Notes under the pieces: model-generated
Database searches by the model: none
Seen by the model: the letters and a program-made list of their open reading frames with translations, nothing else
What the model was told of the DNA's origin: nothing
NCBI GenBank assembly: GCA_965262915.1
Contig: OZ253564.1
Coordinates: 4,320,001-4,384,000, forward strand
Source of the DNA: Candidatus Spongiisociaceae bacterium
GTDB taxonomy: Bacteria; Actinomycetota; Acidimicrobiia; Spongiisociales; Spongiisociaceae
Reading direction: 5' to 3'
Length of the DNA stretch: 64,000 nt
Translations under genes and position numbers: made by a program
In this document: positions 14,474 through 57,605 of the stretch, one piece after another
Position numbering within the stretch: the stretch's first letter is position 1
Layout of the letters: every line of letters begins with the position of its first letter

Positions 14474-15244
14474 ATGGGCACCACCATGCCGGACCCCATC
14501 GAAGCCGCCGCTGCCCTGCTGCACGGCTCGACCCGCATCCTGATCTTCACCGGGGCAGGGGTATCCACCGAGTCGGGAATACCCGACTTTCGCGGCCCCG
14601 ACGGCCTGTGGAAGAAGGTCGACCCCGACGACTTCACCATCGCCCGCTACCTGTCCTCGGCGGGTGCCCGGAAACGAAGCTGGATCAGGTGGTCGACCTC
14701 CCCCCTGCGGCATGCCCGACCCAACGCCGCCCACCGGGCGGTCACCGAGTTGGCCGGGATGGGGCGGCTGGAAGGGTGTGTCACCCAGAACATCGACGGC
14801 CTCCACCAGGCAGCCGGCCTACCCGACGAGTTGACGGTCGAGGTACACGGCAACGTGTGGTCGGTTCTCTGCCTCGTCTGCCCCGCGCGGTGGCCGACCG
14901 AGGAGGTGTTCGCCCGGGTGGAGAGCGGGGACGAGGATCCGCACTGCCCCCACTGCGGGGGCATCATCAAGCTGACGGTGATCTCCTTCGGCCAGGCCAT
15001 GCCGGCCGGCGAGATGAACCGCGCCTACGCCATGGCCCGCCACACCGATGGGGTGGTCGCCGTCGGTACCACCCTCTCGGTGTGGCCCGCGGCGGACATC
15101 CCCTTGGCGGCCGCCCGCAGGGGTGTCCCATTCGTGATCATCAACATGGGCCCCACCGATTTGGACAGCAGCGCCGACGTTGCCGTCGAGCAGCCCGCCG
15201 GAAAGGCCATGACCCGGCTGGTGGCGTTGCTCCGGGAGGGATGA
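14474..15244 (+). CDS. cobB: Sir2/CobB NAD-dependent protein deacylase
   Basis: FTGAGVSTESGIPDFRG, TQNIDGLHQAAG, catalytic HG and two CxxC zinc motifs. Confidence 0.9.
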   Translation: MGTTMPDPIEAAAALLHGSTRILIFTGAGVSTESGIPDFRGPDGLWKKVDPDDFTIARYLSSAGARKRSWIRWSTSPLRHARPNAAHRAVTELAGMGRLEGCVTQNIDGLHQAAGLPDELTVEVHGNVWSVLCLVCPARWPTEEVFARVESGDEDPHCPHCGGIIKLTVISFGQAMPAGEMNRAYAMARHTDGVVAVGTTLSVWPAADIPLAAARRGVPFVIINMGPTDLDSSADVAVEQPAGKAMTRLVALLREG

Positions 15245-52548: not shown

Positions 52549-54147
52549 ATGCCCGCCGTATATCGGACCGAGTTAACGCCCCTTTCCTTCCTCGAACGCT
52601 CCTCGCTCGTCTACGCCGACAAGACGGCCATCGTGGACGGTGACCGCCGGATCACCTACCGGGAGATGGCCCTGGAGACCACCCGTATGGCCAACTCCCT
52701 GGCCGATTCGGGCATCGGACCGGGTGACCGGGTGGCCTTCCTGTGCTCCAACATCCCCGAGATGCTGCTGGCCCACTTCGGGGTGCCGCTCATCGGGGCG
52801 GTTCTGGTGGCGGTCAACACACGCCTCTCCCCCCACGAGATTCGCTACATCCTCGATCACTCCGGAGCGAAGATGCTGTTCGGGGAGACGGAGTTGCTCG
52901 CACCCCTCGCCGGGGTGATGGGGGATCTCCCCAACGTCGCCGAAGTGGTTTCGATCGAACGCTCCGGCACCCAGGCCGGATACCGGACCACCCCGTACCA
53001 CCGGTTCCTCACCAGGGGATCGGATCAGCCGCTCCCGTGGACCGTGGACGACGAGGAACGCACCATCTCGATCAACTACACGTCCGGCACCACCGGCCGT
53101 CCGAAGGGCGTCATGTACACGCATCGCGGTGCTTACCTCAACGCTTTGGGGGAGATCATCCACTCGCGCCACTCCCCTCGTTCCGTATACCTATGGACCC
53201 TTCCAATGTTCCACTGCAACGGTTGGTGTACGACGTGGGGCGTCACCGGAATCGGTGGGACCCACATATGCCTTCCGCGCTTGGATCCGGCCGAGATCTG
53301 GTCGCTGATCGACTCTCAGGGCGTCACGCACTTCAACGCGGCGCCCACCATCCTGATCGGTCTGGTCAACGCGCCCCAGGCTCACCCCTTCCCGCGGCCG
53401 GTGACCATCACCACCGGCGGGGCGCCGCCCAGCCCCACCCTCGTCGAGGCAATGGAGGGACTGGGGGCGGAGATCGTCCACTTGTACGGCCTGACGGAGA
53501 CCTACGGGCCCCACACCGTCTGCGAACTCCAGGCGGGTGTCGAGTCGATGCCCGTGGCAGAACGAGCCGGGTTTCTGGCCCGCCAGGGCGTGTCGTACCT
53601 CATTGCCGACCCCGTGCGGGTGGTCGACAACCAGATGCGGGATGTCCCGCGAGACGCCACCGCCATGGGGGAAGTGGTGATGAGGGGCAACAACGTGATG
53701 AAGGGGTACTTCGATAGCCCGGAGGCCACGGCCGAGGCCTTCCGAGGTGGCTTCTTCCACTCCGGAGATATCGCGGTTTGGCATCCCGACCAGTACATAG
53801 ACCTGCGGGATCGCTCGAAGGACATCATCATCTCCGGAGGCGAGAACATCTCGACCATCGAGGTCGAGAAGGTCATCTCCAACCACCCGGCGGTGTTGGA
53901 GTGCGCCGTGGTGGGCGTGCCCCACGAACGATGGGGAGAACGCCCGAAGGCTTTCGTGGTACTCAAGTCCGGCCACACCGCCCGGCCCCGGGAGATCATC
54001 GACCACGTAAGGGACCGCCTGGCCCACTTCAAAGCGCCCGATACGGTGGCGTTGGTCGATACCCTGCCGAAGACCTCCACCGGAAAGATCCAGAAGTTCG
54101 TTCTCCGGAACTCGGAGTGGGAAAGCAGCGCACGCCGGATCAACTAG
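52549..54147 (+). CDS. Acyl-CoA synthetase (AMP-forming)
   Basis: LTPLSFLER, NYTSGTTGRPKG, PMFHCNGW, YGLTETYGP and DIIISGGENIS. Confidence 0.93.
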   Translation: MPAVYRTELTPLSFLERSSLVYADKTAIVDGDRRITYREMALETTRMANSLADSGIGPGDRVAFLCSNIPEMLLAHFGVPLIGAVLVAVNTRLSPHEIRYILDHSGAKMLFGETELLAPLAGVMGDLPNVAEVVSIERSGTQAGYRTTPYHRFLTRGSDQPLPWTVDDEERTISINYTSGTTGRPKGVMYTHRGAYLNALGEIIHSRHSPRSVYLWTLPMFHCNGWCTTWGVTGIGGTHICLPRLDPAEIWSLIDSQGVTHFNAAPTILIGLVNAPQAHPFPRPVTITTGGAPPSPTLVEAMEGLGAEIVHLYGLTETYGPHTVCELQAGVESMPVAERAGFLARQGVSYLIADPVRVVDNQMRDVPRDATAMGEVVMRGNNVMKGYFDSPEATAEAFRGGFFHSGDIAVWHPDQYIDLRDRSKDIIISGGENISTIEVEKVISNHPAVLECAVVGVPHERWGERPKAFVVLKSGHTARPREIIDHVRDRLAHFKAPDTVALVDTLPKTSTGKIQKFVLRNSEWESSARRIN

Positions 54148-54239
54148 AAGGGTGCTGAGAGACCCGGAGACAGACCGTGCTCCGCGGCCATCGGGATATG
54201 GGCGGCGAACACTCCGGGGAGTGCACCAGCAGGGCCGGA

Positions 54240-54571
54240 ACGACAAACCCCGAGTGAGCCTGACGGCCCTCTCGGGGTTGCCGTTGCTCTCCCTTGCCTT
54301 CGCCCGAAGGCGGCGGTTCGTTCGAGCCGTTTCGGAAGCCGGCCCGAAGGTCGCCTTCCCCACTACCCTTCCACGGCCGCATCGCTGCCACCGCTTCCGG
54401 GTCGCGGTCCCGGCTCGGACCGAGGTCCTGACCGGTGTTGCGTTTCCCCTATGGTCGCATCGCTGCTCCCGTCGGAGTCCCGCCCACCTTCCCTTCTGCA
54501 TCGGCGCCGGTACCGAGGTACCACCACCGGCTGCTCCAGTCCGGTCTCTGCCCGGGTTGCCCCGTTCAGCA
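54240..54571 (-). ncRNA. Candidate ~330-nt highly structured non-coding RNA
   Basis: Upstream TTGCCT-N17-TAGCTT (54606-54578); many tetraloop hairpins (GCAA, UUCG x2, CUCG x2, GCGA x2); ends in the AACCCCGAG/CTCGGGGTT stem; no credible ORF. Confidence 0.55.
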
Positions 54572-54758
54572 CTTACAAAGCTAAGTTGTCCGCAGAGGGA
54601 AGGCAAGGCAGAGAGATCGGAATCTTTCGCGCCTCAAGCATTCTTTTCGCGGCCGTCCCGGCAACGACTCCCGGCCTTCAGGACAAGACCCGGCATTGGT
54701 CGGCCACCCGGAGCACCTCATGTCACTTTCCGGCCGCCGGTCCCGTATAGTTACGTGC

Positions 54759-55673
54759 ATGTCATTAGTGATCACGCGTGAACGGCCCCCCCAGCCGACC
54801 GGACCGGAGGAGGTGGCGGGTCGATCCCCCGACGCCGTCGCTCCGGCTTCCGTCCAACCGAGCACGGCGACCCTCTCCCCCAGCCGGGCGTCCAACTTCA
54901 AACAATGTCCCCTGCTCTTCCGGTACCGGTCGATCGATCGTCTCCCCGAACCGCCCTCCGTGTACCAGGCCCGGGGCACCACCGCCCACCTGGCCCTCGA
55001 GTGCCTCTTCGATCTTCCCGCCGAACAAAGGACCGCCCAACGCCTCTTCGATCTGTTCCGCGAGGCGTGGACCGGTTTGCGCGCCGATCCCGAATACTCG
55101 GGACTGTTCGAGACCCTCGACGATGAGCGAGCCTGGGGGATCGAGAGCCTGGGAGTTCTGGCCAACTACCTGACCCTCGAGAACCCGGTAGCGGTCACTC
55201 CCCTCGGCAAAGAACTCGACATGACGGAGAAGGTGGGAGAGATCGTCATAAGGGGCATCCTGGACCGTCTCGACGAGCGCCCCGACGGTCAGCTGATGAT
55301 CGTCGACTACAAGACGGGACGCGCCCCGCCGGAGCGTTACGCCCTCCCGGCCTTCTTCGCCCTCAAGATCTACGCATTGCTGGTGCGCCGCAGGTTCGGG
55401 CGCACGCCTGCCGAACTGCGACTCATGTACCTGGGCAACTCCACCGTCTACTCGATCGGCGTGGACGACCGGGTTCTGGACGGGATGGAGCGCCAACTGG
55501 CCGCCTTGGCCGAGGCGATCGAACGAGCCATAGAGCGCGATCACTTCCCGCCCAGGCCCTCAGTGCTGTGCAAGTGGTGCTCGTTCCAGCAGATCTGCCC
55601 CGCTTTCAGCGATATGCGGGACGATGAGCCTTCCCGCCGCCCACCTCCCGTACCTGTGGCTCTGGCTGGCTGA
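54759..55673 (+). CDS. RecB-family PD-(D/E)XK exonuclease with Fe-S cysteines
   Basis: LSPSRASNFKQCP, RGILDRLD, IVDYKTG and C-terminal LCKWCSFQQICP; TATAGT just upstream suggests a leaderless start. Confidence 0.88.
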   Translation: MSLVITRERPPQPTGPEEVAGRSPDAVAPASVQPSTATLSPSRASNFKQCPLLFRYRSIDRLPEPPSVYQARGTTAHLALECLFDLPAEQRTAQRLFDLFREAWTGLRADPEYSGLFETLDDERAWGIESLGVLANYLTLENPVAVTPLGKELDMTEKVGEIVIRGILDRLDERPDGQLMIVDYKTGRAPPERYALPAFFALKIYALLVRRRFGRTPAELRLMYLGNSTVYSIGVDDRVLDGMERQLAALAEAIERAIERDHFPPRPSVLCKWCSFQQICPAFSDMRDDEPSRRPPPVPVALAG

Positions 55674-55684
55674 ACCCCGCCTAG

Positions 55685-55787
55685 CGGGGTACTGAGAAAT
55701 CCCTCCCCCCGTTGGCCCGACGGTCATGACGGACTGCCATGCCGGCGGACGATGGGCCGGCCAGCCGCCAGTTTTCTCGGCACCTTC
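55685..55787. mobile_element. ~100-bp MITE (family B) with a perfect CTAG duplication
   Basis: CTAG(55681)-CGGGGTACTGAGAAA ... TTTCTCGGCACCTTC-CTAG(55788). Confidence 0.8.
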
Positions 55788-56183
55788 CTAGTGTCCTGAG
55801 TCTTTGGTTCGCGGTGTTCAGGAACCGGCGTCGTCCCACGATCGGCATGCCCACCGATTTACAGCACCCCCGCAGGGACCGGCCGCGCCGCCACAAGGGG
55901 ATTGACATGTCACAGTCCCGTTGTATAATGGTAAATAGCCGTAAACACCACCGGTCCGTTTTGCGGTACCGACCGGACCGGGGCAGGGATCATGTTGTCG
56001 GAGCCGACCCCTCGCAGGGGATGGCGGGACGCGTTCGGGAACCGAGGAGGTGGCGGTTGGGGGTGGGCCCGTCGGAGGGATCCGGTCCGGCGTTTTTCGC
56101 GTTCTCGGTCCCCCAAGGCCTGCCGGGTGCCATCGCCGGCACGTCCCGAGTATCCATAACTGATCCCGGAATCAGGACATTAT
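55788..56183 (+). mobile_element. 396-bp element family C, copy 2
   Basis: CTAGTGTCCTGAGTC ... AATCAGGACATTAT; contains the consensus promoter TTGACA(55902)-N16-TATAAT(55924). Confidence 0.88.
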
Positions 56184-56187
56184 GACC

Positions 56188-56281
56188 GTGGTCAAAACCC
56201 CTTCACGGCACGTCGACCGATGACATGATGCCTGTTCAGAGGAAGACGGGCCGTTGCCCCCCACCATCTTGCAGCACCCTC
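56188..56281 (+). mobile_element. ~100-bp MITE (family A), copy 4, left end damaged
   Basis: Interior matches the A copies; right end TTGCAGCACCCTC abuts the gdh TAG. Confidence 0.8.
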
Positions 56282-57550
56282 CTACGGGTACACCCCCCGC
56301 ACGAGTTTGGCAGCCGCAACCCGCTCAATGCCCTTCATGAGCGCCGCGGTCCGCATGTCCACCTTCTTCCTGATGCTCACGACGAGCACGTCCTCGAAGG
56401 CCCGGATCATGATCTCCCTCAGCCGGCTGACGATCTCGTTCTCCGACCAGAAGTAGTTCTGGAGGTCCTGTACCCACTCGAAATAGGAGACGGTCACCCC
56501 ACCGGCGTTGCAGAGGATGTCCGGAACGATGAGCACCCCCTTGTCCCGCAGCACCCGGTCCGCCTCCAGCGTGGTCGGGTTGTTGGCGCCTTCCAGGATC
56601 AGCTTGGTATCGACCTCCTCGACGTTGCGGGCCGTGATCACACTCCCGACCGCCGCCGGTATCAGCACCTCGCATTCCAGGGCGAACAACTCGTCCGGCC
56701 GGATGGGATCGGCCCCGGGAAAGCCTTGCACGCCGCCTGTCCTGTCGACGTGGCGGGTCAGCCTGCCCACTTCGAGCCCGTTACCGTTGTGGATCGCACC
56801 GCTGAGGTCAGCCACCCCGGTCACCCGGCAACCGAGTTCGGCCGCGGCGATCGCCGCGTAGCGGCCCACGTTGCCGAAACCCTGGATGACCACCCGGGCA
56901 CCATCGACCCGGACCCCGCACCGGGCGGCTGCGGAGGGCAGGAGGCTGATGACCCCGCGCCCGGTCGCTTCCCGGCGGGCTACCGAGCCACCCAGCTCGG
57001 GCGGCTTTCCGGTGACCACCGCCGGGACCGCGTAACCCTGGTTCTGGCTGTAGGTGTCCATGATCCAGGCCATGACCTGCTCATCGGTCCCCAGGTCGGG
57101 CGCCGGGATGTCTTTCTGGGGACCGATCATGTTTATCACCTCGGCGGTGTAACGCCGCGTGACCCTTTGGAGCTCCGCCCTCGAGAGGGCACGGGGGTTT
57201 ATCCGCACGCCCCCCTTGGCGCCTCCGAAGGGAAGCCCCACAAGAGCGCACTTCCAGGTCATGAGCATGGCCAGGGCCGCGACCTCACCCAGGTTGACAT
57301 CTTCCGCGTACCTGATCCCGCCCTTGGTCGGCCCCATGGTGAGCACGTGCTGCACGCGGTATCCGAAGGCGGTACGAACCTTCGAGTACTCGTCGGTGCG
57401 GTAGGGGAACGTGACCACCAGAGCACGCTGCGGCTTGGTGAGCCTCTCGCGCACGTTGTCGTCGAGGTTGATCATCTCGGCCACGTTCTCGAACTGGGCC
57501 ACCGCCTCCCGGTACATGGGCGAGTCCCACTCCATCTCGTTAGTTACCAT
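56282..57550 (-). CDS. gdhA: Glu/Leu/Phe/Val dehydrogenase (glutamate dehydrogenase)
   Basis: GPTKGGIRY, GGAKGG, DIPAPD, QGFGNVG, EGANNP and NAGGVTVSYFEW. Confidence 0.93.
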   Translation of the reverse strand: MVTNEMEWDSPMYREAVAQFENVAEMINLDDNVRERLTKPQRALVVTFPYRTDEYSKVRTAFGYRVQHVLTMGPTKGGIRYAEDVNLGEVAALAMLMTWKCALVGLPFGGAKGGVRINPRALSRAELQRVTRRYTAEVINMIGPQKDIPAPDLGTDEQVMAWIMDTYSQNQGYAVPAVVTGKPPELGGSVARREATGRGVISLLPSAAARCGVRVDGARVVIQGFGNVGRYAAIAAAELGCRVTGVADLSGAIHNGNGLEVGRLTRHVDRTGGVQGFPGADPIRPDELFALECEVLIPAAVGSVITARNVEEVDTKLILEGANNPTTLEADRVLRDKGVLIVPDILCNAGGVTVSYFEWVQDLQNYFWSENEIVSRLREIMIRAFEDVLVVSIRKKVDMRTAALMKGIERVAAAKLVRGVYP

Positions 57551-57605
57551 TGTTTCCCCAGGTCAGAGGCTGTTTGACTTTTTTTGGTTACTACTTCTGT
57601 AACCG

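Follow-up and report, generated by a model that had tools for sequence, protein, structure and literature searches.

Evidence for a new family of structured noncoding RNA genes in one order of Acidimicrobiia

Background

OLE, ROOL and GOLLD are large structured bacterial noncoding RNAs (ncRNAs) of unknown function. CsrB and RsmX, RsmY and RsmZ are multiple paralogous, hairpin-rich RNAs that act as protein sponges and are made from their own promoters, with a GacA upstream activating sequence at about -60 to -80. raiA has been described as a further large structured bacterial ncRNA whose function is not known (PMC10861870). Ms1 is described as one long hairpin that opens into a conserved central bubble, with a short hairpin close to either end (PMC4191392), and HAD-IB hydrolase and oxidoreductase genes are given as its synteny (PMC9130861). 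Here we describe a locus on the minus strand of a 64,000-nucleotide (nt) stretch of contig OZ253564.1 of a Candidatus Spongiisociaceae bacterium (hereafter the window, to which all coordinates refer). The locus, running from about 54572 to 54238, is very probably a genuine new structured ncRNA gene. A first-pass annotation, made from the letters of the DNA, had proposed a stand-alone, structured ncRNA divergent from a RecB-like nuclease gene, and this was borne out, the RNA being expressed and the nuclease matching PF12705 at 126 bits.

The window RNA shares several features with Ms1 (MTS2823 in M. tuberculosis), in that it is actinobacterial, apparently abundant, structured and about 300 nt long, with a sigmaA-like promoter and end hairpins, and in that it belongs to a lineage where 6S RNA cannot be found. 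Unlike Ms1, it is a multi-hairpin RNA that has end hairpins but no long bubble-bearing hairpin; its flanking genes encode a nuclease and an acyl-CoA synthetase, and its family has an approximately five-fold length range and tandem gene copies. It is by described fold and synteny, not by sequence, that the family is set apart from Ms1. 6S RNA (RF00013) is likewise an abundant, structured, stand-alone bacterial RNA acting by shape, as the window RNA may, but the window RNA has neither a match to the 6S model nor a closing stem with central bubble, and is about twice as long. In place of the 6S rod of closing stem, bubble and terminal stem, its minimum free energy (MFE), centroid and consensus folds show hairpins and multibranch domains strung one after another. 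The CsrB and Rsm RNAs resemble the family as paralogous, hairpin-rich RNAs of variable length, each with a promoter and an upstream element. Here, however, there is no CsrA gene (no match to PF02599 in this genome, G000), the loops are of the GNRA and UUCG types without repeated GGA loop motifs, and the upstream element consists of two direct CGCGAAAA boxes, not a palindrome. Lineage restriction, covariation, GNRA loops, conserved helices and the lack of a known function are shared with raiA, OLE, ROOL and GOLLD, but there is no match to their Rfam models here or in eight other family loci.

Results

Structure of the window RNA

The 5' end of the RNA is placed at 54572 by the promoter geometry, and the 3' end at 54238 because the extended 3' stem ends there. 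The RNA is 40% G, 11% U and 61% purine. For 54240-54590 of the minus strand, the MFE is -177.9 kcal/mol, against -149.2 +/- 5.8 kcal/mol for 100 dinucleotide shuffles (z -4.91), none of which folded as well, so that the shuffle control proposed in the first pass came out in favor of the RNA. The plus strand of the same stretch folds with a z of -3.05 against shuffles. The parts of the RNA are as follows.

54238-54572, minus strand: the RNA, about 335 nt (A68 C95 G135 U37), both ends predicted to within a few nt
54548-54569, minus strand: P1, the 5' stem-loop, CUG / AA.GG internal loop / CGGG-GCAA-CCCG / CAG, from the predicted fold and relatives
54498-54534, minus strand: hairpin GCA/CGGUG/UGGUAC-CUCG-GUACCG/CGCCG/UGC, in the MFE and centroid folds; a GGUAC...GUAYC hairpin is also found in relatives
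54440-54483, minus strand: tiered hairpin GCG/CUCC/GG/GCA-GCGA-UGC/CC/GGGG/CGC with a GNRA loop, in the MFE and centroid folds
54410-54435, minus strand: hairpin CCGGU/GGAC-CUCG-GUCC/GCCGG, in the MFE and centroid folds
54360-54407, minus strand: long hairpin CCGC/ACCC/(GGAA)/GCGGU/GCA-GCGA-UGC/GCCGU/(GGAA)/GGGU/GUGG with symmetric purine loops, from fold prediction
54334-54359, minus strand: hairpin A, GGAAGGCGACC-UUCG-GGCCGGCUUCC, in the MFE fold and in alignment A5 (columns 52-77)
54286-54327, minus strand: hairpin B, GCUC ... GCCUUC-GGGC-GAAGGC ... GAGC, from the alignment of family f1 (columns 84-120), the inner stem also in the window fold
54239-54285, minus strand: extended 3' stem-loop AACGGCAA/CCCCGAG/A/GGGCC-GUCA-GGCUC/A/CUCGGGG/UUGUCGUU, from fold and covariation

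The terminal loops are thus GCAA, CUCG, GCGA (twice), UUCG and GUCA, and the internal loops include the symmetric GGAA/GGAA and AA/GG; the 3' stem has an internal mismatch. The local hairpins read in the first pass were found in place: CGGG-GCAA-CCCG, the tip of P1, at 54564-54553; GGUAC-CUCG-GUACC at 54522-54509; CUCC-GACG-GGAG starting at 54477; GCA-GCGA-UGC at 54466-54457 and again at 54388-54379; GGAC-CUCG-GUCC at 54428-54417; the UUCG hairpin within GGAAG...CUUCC at 54359-54334; and GCC-UUCG-GGC within 54311-54296. The final stem, CCCCGAG/CUCGGGG at 54277-54248, is also present but is longer than had been claimed: it is prolonged by pairing between ACGGCAA (54284-54278) and the 3' tail, UUGUCGU (54246-54240), an extension that shows covariation in relatives. 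The proposed long-range pairs GACCGG/CCGGUC and CGAGCCG/CGGCUCG are not supported as pairs. The complementary words exist, but they are unused in the MFE and centroid folds and are not kept in the closest homologues, where alignments read by eye show only a self-complementary CCGG core surviving.

Transcription of the locus

Six RNA libraries hold a small share of the 1.8-kilobase (kb) stretch around the locus. Contigs from four sponge metatranscriptome runs (three studies) were aligned to 53600-55400, and each run had one contig on the candidate only (54260-54560, 54269-54562, 54269-54510 and 54289-54561). The mean k-mer depths of these contigs across the four runs were 802, 692, 290 and 4.7. 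No contig from the four runs lay over 53905-54209 or 54576-55002, uncovered parts that serve as a within-run contrast to the covered 300 nt only and not as evidence of silence. The nuclease gene was covered in one run only, at a depth of 2.8-3.6, and short contig pieces with loose ends at 53804-53870 are conserved bits of the synthetase genes of other organisms.

Two of the four contigs fall entirely within the RNA and have no loose ends. The other two extend into unlike sequence past 54560 and 54562, extensions that are taken to be assembly chimeras. Contig cover begins 10-12 nt inside the predicted 5' end and stops 20-50 nt before the predicted 3' end, in both cases within a terminal hairpin. 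At 6-7 positions the contig sequences depart from that of the window (~98% identity), and the contigs therefore come from a related strain. A discrete, separately assembled and deeply covered RNA species coincides with the predicted gene, and the RNA is probably one of the most abundant non-ribosomal transcripts of its host organisms. On the metatranscriptome check suggested in the first pass, cover is confined to the candidate; assembled contigs do not give the strand.

Covariation and the structural core

A BLAST search of the region against 61 relatives gave matches in 23 genomes at E<=0.01, those in L002-L020 (19 genomes) being robust. Two genomes of the same genus align over 246 nt at 72-74% identity, and the others align over the 3' 30-85 nt only, at 77-100%. 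The window RNA is about 90 nt shorter on its 5' side than the nearest homologues. For this reason a three-way alignment (A1) was misaligned in its 5' third; it gave 15 double changes, with 22 broken or gapped pairs among 106, and was not relied on. A MAFFT alignment of all family-f1 RNAs (the order and its families f1, f2, f4 and so on are anonymous group labels) was poor in the middle, and RNAalifold recovered only the 3' stem from it.

The sole covariance model built, R1 (158 positions), comes from an alignment of 24 sequences of a short form of about 155 nt. This short form folds as the P1 5' hairpin, P2, P3 and the extended 3' stem. P2 has an invariant CC-GAGA-GG tip, P3 is flanked by conserved GAGAC and GGAGU, and 19 of the 39 pairs predicted by RNAalifold show compensatory changes. 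In short-form members (e.g., L063:3363-3516), the P2 tip CCGAGAGG repeats the 5' arm CCCCGAGAGGG of the invariant 3' stem, so that one 7-8-nt word serves as a loop in P2 and as a strand of the helix in the 3' stem. This repeat could be a shared recognition site or could allow alternative pairing with the 3' arm.

R1 matches the window at 54238-54368 on the minus strand with 40.5 bits (E 2e-9), the next best match in the 64 kb having 14.7 bits. Other parts of the window give weak R1 matches (15035-15197, E 0.012, among them); these are taken as chance, as are the short BLAST matches L021-L029. Across 100 fetched loci, R1 gave 154 matches at E<=1e-4. In 145 distinct sequences aligned to the model, 94.3% of cells hold standard pairs (76.4% when shuffled), 35 of the 39 pairs have double changes, and double-change cells number 800 against 196 shuffled. 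The covariation score is 0.371, against 0.151 for shuffled alignments, none of 500 reaching it, and drops to 0.053-0.072 when the partners are slid by 1-3 columns.

The helices differ in what is conserved. The central seven pairs of the 3' stem are near-constant (e.g., CG in 140 of 140 scored sequences), and its core CCCCGAGAGGG...CUCNCUCGGGG is near-invariant across the order; since these pairs hardly vary, the helix is conserved as sequence and not merely as pairing. The outer extension of this stem covaries (e.g., AU:60 GC:57), as do all other helices. In P1, the upper stem has compensatory changes at all five pairs of the 145-sequence alignment, and the lower stem is CUG/CAG in the window and GCCGG/CCGGC, GGUC/GACC or CCAG/CUGG in relatives. 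In all, 85 distinct family sequences are predicted to form a two-tier 5' hairpin at this position, its lower stem varying from one to another. The presence of a 5' hairpin of at least 7 base pairs within 10 nt (108 of 112 units, against 1472 of 2240 mononucleotide shuffles) does not discriminate in such GC-rich sequence; only its mean energy differs, being -17.7 kcal/mol in the units and -11.9 kcal/mol in the shuffles. The strand is also indicated. At pair 348/383, 120 sequences have G-U, and because conserved G-U pairs would be C-A mismatches on the opposite strand, the RNA strand is the window minus strand; R1 scores much lower on the reverse strand, and the promoter also points to the minus strand.

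For the long form, 12 family-f1 sequences, including the window RNA, gave 40 predicted pairs, 12 of them compensatory; these fall in the GCGA-tipped hairpin, in hairpins A and B and in the 3' stem. The inner part of the 54360-54407 hairpin is predicted on this alignment (columns 17-34), and hairpin B shows compensatory changes, e.g., UA:5 CG:5 at columns 85/119. R1 aligns hairpin A to the first helix of the model, and an alternative local fold is predicted there too. The GYA-GNRA-URC tip of the 54440-54483 hairpin recurs among homologues, with a C-G to U-A change. The features that define the new family include a double CGCGAAAR box set 17 nt before the -35/-10 promoter, a two-tier 5' stem-loop within about 5-8 nt of the start and a 3' stem-loop with a core of the form CCCCGAGRGGG...CUYNCUCGGGG and a covarying extension. 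The window RNA has all three and is a long, derived member.

Gene plan, promoter and upstream double box

The gene plan common to the aligned family members opens with two CGCGAAAA boxes, followed after about 40-46 nt by a TAnnnT -10 element, then by 14-15 nt and a GGGG-loop-CCC 5' hairpin. A variable body comes next, and the gene ends in a 3' hairpin, CCCCGAGAGGGC-loop-GCUCACUCGGGG. At the window locus the upstream elements are as follows.

54644-54651, minus strand: upstream box 1, CGCGAAAA, read from the sequence and by pattern scan
54624-54631, minus strand: upstream box 2, CGCGAAAG, ending 17 nt before the -35, read from the sequence and by pattern scan
54601-54606, minus strand: -35 hexamer TTGCCT (family consensus TTGACG), from the sequence and family promoters
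54578-54583, minus strand: -10 hexamer TAGCTT (TAnnnT type; family consensus TAnnTT), 17-nt spacer, from the sequence and family promoters

The promoter TTGCCT-N17-TAGCTT had been read correctly in the first pass (54606-54601 and 54583-54578). The two boxes are 20 nt apart, start to start, and are centered near -56 and -76. A scan of the 5.06-Mb genome for the pattern CGCGAAAR-N11-15-CGCGAAAR gave this one match and no control matches. A strict promoter score was passed by 66 of 112 distinct family units. In 61 of these 66 the -35 starts 17 nt past box 2, and the -35/-10 spacer is 17 nt in 40 and 18 nt in 23. The window promoter matches the family spacing exactly (box 2, 17 nt, TTGCCT, 17 nt, TAGCTT), and relatives have the -10 at the same 14-15 nt from the 5' hairpin. 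In the fetched loci, a double box with at most one mismatch per box lies within 620 nt upstream of 129 of 134 3' hairpins. The distances from box to hairpin end cluster at ~205-216, 322-327, 418-420 and 470-480 nt, which corresponds to RNAs of about 155, 275, 370 and 425 nt within a full range of ~100-500 nt.

The double box is not confined to the RNA genes. Of 401 Acidimicrobiia genomes, 156 carry its exact pattern, compared with some 13 control matches, with family counts of 41/48 in f4, 22/25 in f2, 9/12 in f10, 5/5 in f7, 3/3 in f6 and 4/5 in f1. Outside the order, it occurs in 52 of 65 genomes of f16, a family with ~1-Mb genomes, where there is one box pair per genome, upstream of dnaA in all 27 fetched loci; in this AT-rich family, TTCGCGAA is palindromic. 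Within the own order of the window genome, the double box also precedes dnaA (5 loci), nrdJ, encoding a class II ribonucleotide reductase (4 loci), a WhiB gene and an AlgH-like gene. One upstream promoter element is therefore common to the RNA genes and to genes for the replication initiator and for deoxynucleotide (dNTP) supply. The loci concerned are the window (54624-54651), L114-L140, L154, L157, L160, L163, L165, L189, L192, L194 and L199. In this genome, a degenerate double box lies about 300 nt upstream of dnaA (G000:C1:404481). Between the double box and nrdJ (L154, L157, L160) there are TGTGGAYA words and AT-rich palindromes, which we take to resemble DnaA boxes and NrdR boxes. The double box looks like the operator of a replication- or growth-linked regulator.

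Distribution of the family

The class was sampled with 151 Acidimicrobiia genomes at least 90% complete, searched with R1 at E<=0.001. Matches were found in 48 of them, namely G000, 43 of 44 other genomes of its own order and 4 of 106 from other orders, three of the latter being weak. The own-order matches span 8 families, with 1-4 per genome, mostly in tandem. In a phylum-wide sample of 151 genomes, R1 matched G000, all four own-order genomes and, weakly and partially, one further genome (G570). Within the genomes searched, the family is confined to a single order of the class. The first-pass annotation had named conservation with covariation in Acidimicrobiia as a check, and the 43 of 44 genomes and the double changes at 35 of 39 pairs answer it in the affirmative. 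The tallies of BLAST relatives, double-box genomes and the phylum sample include the unpublished genomes G032, G043, G254, G295, G315 and G570; the single claim that rests on these is the weak match outside the class in G570. The relatives are metagenome-assembled genomes from sponges, sediments and soils. Searches of the available literature library returned no such RNA family and no regulatory RNA described for this order.

Copy number varies locally. For example, G011, of the same family as the window genome (L006/L036), has RNA paralogues of ~150 nt and ~360 nt in tandem; L076 has three copies with identical model scores, and L093 has repeated pairs.

Searches for known RNAs, proteins and repeats

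The 64-kb window has no Rfam 15 gathering match. A permissive Rfam scan of 53900-55000 gave only two plus-strand chance matches, at E 1.4, and none on the minus strand, and there were no matches at E<=1 in eight other loci with family members. RNase P, tmRNA, SRP, raiA and all other Rfam families were accordingly rejected as candidates, in line with the first-pass remark that RNase P, tmRNA and SRP signatures are missing. No 6S (RF00013) match was obtained at E<=10 in 53900-55000, at E<=0.001 in the genome or in any of the 151 Acidimicrobiia genomes; the model found 6S in only 4-5 of 14 control genomes, so that its silence is weak evidence of absence. The genome also has no 6C RNA, which was considered as a possible sponge target.

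Protein coding was considered for a 471-aa open reading frame (ORF) at 53191-54606 (minus strand), which has no Pfam match, and for a 69-aa ORF at 54363-54572 (minus strand). It was rejected because several 1-nt indels relative to the nearest homologues break the frame. The locus is not a repeat or mobile element, since the RNA and the double box are single-copy in the genome, nor is it a bare bidirectional terminator, since 129 of 134 3' hairpins are tied to a promoter 100-500 nt upstream.

Neighboring genes

The RNA gene lies in a gap of about 600 nt between two protein-coding genes.

54759-55673, plus strand: PD-(D/E)XK (RecB/Cas4-like) nuclease, 304 aa, divergent from the RNA gene (Pfam PF12705, 126 bits)
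52549-54147, plus strand: AMP-binding acyl-CoA synthetase, convergent and outside the RNA unit (profile match)

ORF calling gives the nuclease as 54696-55673 (plus strand), a start that is probably too far upstream. A TATAGT -10 lies at 54746-54751, and an in-frame ATG follows after 7 nt at 54759. The motif ATGACAT...GTAACTATA (in minus-strand reading) is kept in six relatives, and several homologues are exactly 304 aa with 100% query cover, under names such as 'PD-(D/E)XK nuclease family protein' and 'putative RecB family exonuclease'. The gene is probably leaderless, starting at ATG 54759.

In L002-L020, the nuclease gene adjoins the RNA gene in all loci and the synthetase gene in some only. 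The nuclease gene is single-copy in each of 43 genomes, and 75 of the 85 R1 matches in these genomes (E<=1.2e-6; 8 families) lie within 3 kb of it, at a median of 717 nt; 71 of the 75 are upstream and divergent. At least one such match was found in 41 of the 43 genomes. Of the two exceptions, one has two slightly weaker matches 421 and 922 nt from the nuclease gene, and in the other the nuclease gene is 292 nt from a contig end. A typical block consists of glutamate dehydrogenase, the nuclease and divergent RNA genes, often followed by a bPH_2 membrane-protein or AMP-binding gene, and the first three are syntenic across families. In f4, extra single RNA copies are found elsewhere, beside luciferase-like, TetR/MMPL or EamA genes.

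In the window, the glutamate dehydrogenase gene is at 56282-57550 (minus strand; ELFV_dehydrog, 240.7 bits), and a 450-aa ORF at 56225-57577 (plus strand), with no Pfam match, is its shadow. Between the nuclease and glutamate dehydrogenase genes, a 148-aa ORF at 55739-56185 (plus strand) has no Pfam or NCBIfam match and is absent from the relatives compared by tblastn.

In five relatives of the same genus (L030, L031, L033, L034 and L035), the nuclease gene is kept with no recognizable RNA gene upstream. In four of the five, the acyl-CoA synthetase gene still flanks the region opposite the nuclease gene; of these four, one retains a single box and another has a gap of only ~110 nt between the two genes. 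The same-genus genomes without a BLAST match are 2.8-4.9 Mb in size, compared to 5.06 Mb here.

Discussion

The account we favor, an independent gene of a new RNA family with a trans-acting, protein-binding regulatory mode, seems on balance probable. The gene itself is well supported: a sigmaA-type promoter with an upstream double box yields a stable, abundant RNA that has a protective stem-loop at its 5' end and a long stem-loop with a near-invariant core at its 3' end. Its synthesis would be controlled by a factor that recognizes the double box. The RNA would act in trans by its folded shape, sequestering or scaffolding a protein, and not through a short antisense seed; RNA polymerase (RNAP) and the neighboring nuclease are candidate partners. 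Since the double box is shared with dnaA and nrdJ, the RNA level would follow the replication or growth state. Action by shape is suggested by the GNRA and UUCG loops, the symmetric purine loops and the sequence-invariant 3' helix, by the invariant GAGA tip of the short form, and by the modular body in several size classes. The protective 5' hairpin and the high abundance are further reasons to consider a fold-based mode like that of 6S, Ms1 or CsrB. That the RNA works through its fold and a bound partner is, as a general mode, plausible but tentative.

Several points weigh against this account. The pair counts of the 145-sequence alignment were made on an alignment fitted to the structure of R1. 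The window RNA is without the GAGA-tipped P2 that is invariant in the short form, and it also lacks the GAGAC...GGAGU-flanked P3, R1 aligning its 3' 130 nt only; with the GAGA-tipped hairpin missing here, what is common to the family may come down to the promoter and the 5' and 3' hairpins. The five same-genus relatives without a copy mean that the RNA gene is dispensable. The RNA evidence consists of assembled contigs from a related strain, without strand, true ends or a reliable level, and simple sigma-70 and terminator consensus scans are silent at the locus. The purine-rich single-stranded linkers could equally serve base pairing.

This last point leads to a different kind of RNA, a base-pairing riboregulator or sponge whose linkers AGAAGGGAAGG, AUAGGGGAAA and AAGGGAGAGCAA would pair with pyrimidine-rich mRNA leaders or with small RNAs (sRNAs). 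Its composition (61% purine, 11% U) and the unpaired stretches between hairpins that resemble Shine-Dalgarno sequences fit this reading, as do the tandem paralogues with a variable body, which are typical of sibling sRNAs. However, it is the helices and loops that are conserved across the family and not the linker sequence, the genome has neither 6C RNA nor CsrA for a sponge to act on, and seed-type sRNAs are seldom so large or so highly structured, so that we consider base pairing rather unlikely. It is improbable as well that the RNA is a functional analogue of 6S or Ms1, binding RNAP as holoenzyme or core and buffering transcription capacity, which was the first-pass suggestion. With no 6S in the genome or in any of the 151 class genomes, the 6S role appears unfilled in the class, and the high apparent abundance, a length of ~335 nt near the ~300 nt of Ms1, and short hairpins at both ends, as described for Ms1 (PMC4191392), would suit such a role. 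The suggestion was nevertheless not supported, since the MFE, centroid and consensus folds have no long hairpin with a central bubble, the family spans lengths of ~100-500 nt and has 1-4 tandem paralogues, the neighboring genes differ from those of Ms1, and neither 6S nor any other Rfam model matches the RNA strand at E<=10. The alternative offered alongside it, a new large structured RNA, is the one upheld by the family, its covariation and the lack of an Rfam match.

A local role, as partner or regulator of the adjacent PD-(D/E)XK nuclease, could take the form of an RNA cofactor or inhibitor, or of a divergent pair of sRNA and target with a common control region. The linkage invites this idea, since 75 of 85 family matches are no more than 3 kb from a single-copy nuclease gene, 71 of them in divergent orientation; in complete genomes every true 3' hairpin adjoins the nuclease gene, and adjacency outlasts rearrangement, the RNA genes of L063, L070, L078 and L100 lying downstream on the same strand. 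Yet f4 has extra copies elsewhere, by luciferase-like/TetR or EamA genes, and the nuclease is kept at 68-75% identity in relatives without the RNA. The adjacency may also be inherited rather than selected, because the glutamate dehydrogenase-nuclease-RNA block is syntenic, and we doubt that the nuclease is the partner. It is very improbable that the RNA has no function of its own, whether as a leader or attenuator acting in cis on a downstream gene or as a by-product of strong signals for starting and ending transcription. In other families, a bPH_2 membrane-protein gene in the same orientation lies 100-150 nt beyond the last tandem RNA, as it would behind a leader, but the next gene is convergent in this genome, every tandem unit has its own promoter and 3' hairpin, covariation is strong across the body, and the transcript is discrete in assemblies.

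A more speculative extension of the fold-based account, to which we give little weight, joins the RNA family and the phased CGCG-A4 double box into an undescribed replication-linked module. One factor would co-control dnaA, nrdJ and the RNAs, and the RNAs would act on DNA- or transcription-handling machinery, either as a 6S/Ms1-type RNAP regulator of new architecture or as a cofactor or inhibitor of the Cas4-like Fe-S nuclease kept adjacent across at least 8 families.

With this locus, an uncultured actinobacterial order that has sponge symbionts among its members gains a structured RNA family that is abundant and well supported. The gene model of boxes, promoter, 5' hairpin and invariant 3' hairpin is searchable, so that annotation pipelines and metatranscriptome studies can recognize the RNA. 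The upstream element common to dnaA and nrdJ provides a handle on replication or growth control in a class without a genetic system, and the linkage to a single nuclease gene, which is nearly universal, offers a lead to function that can be tested.

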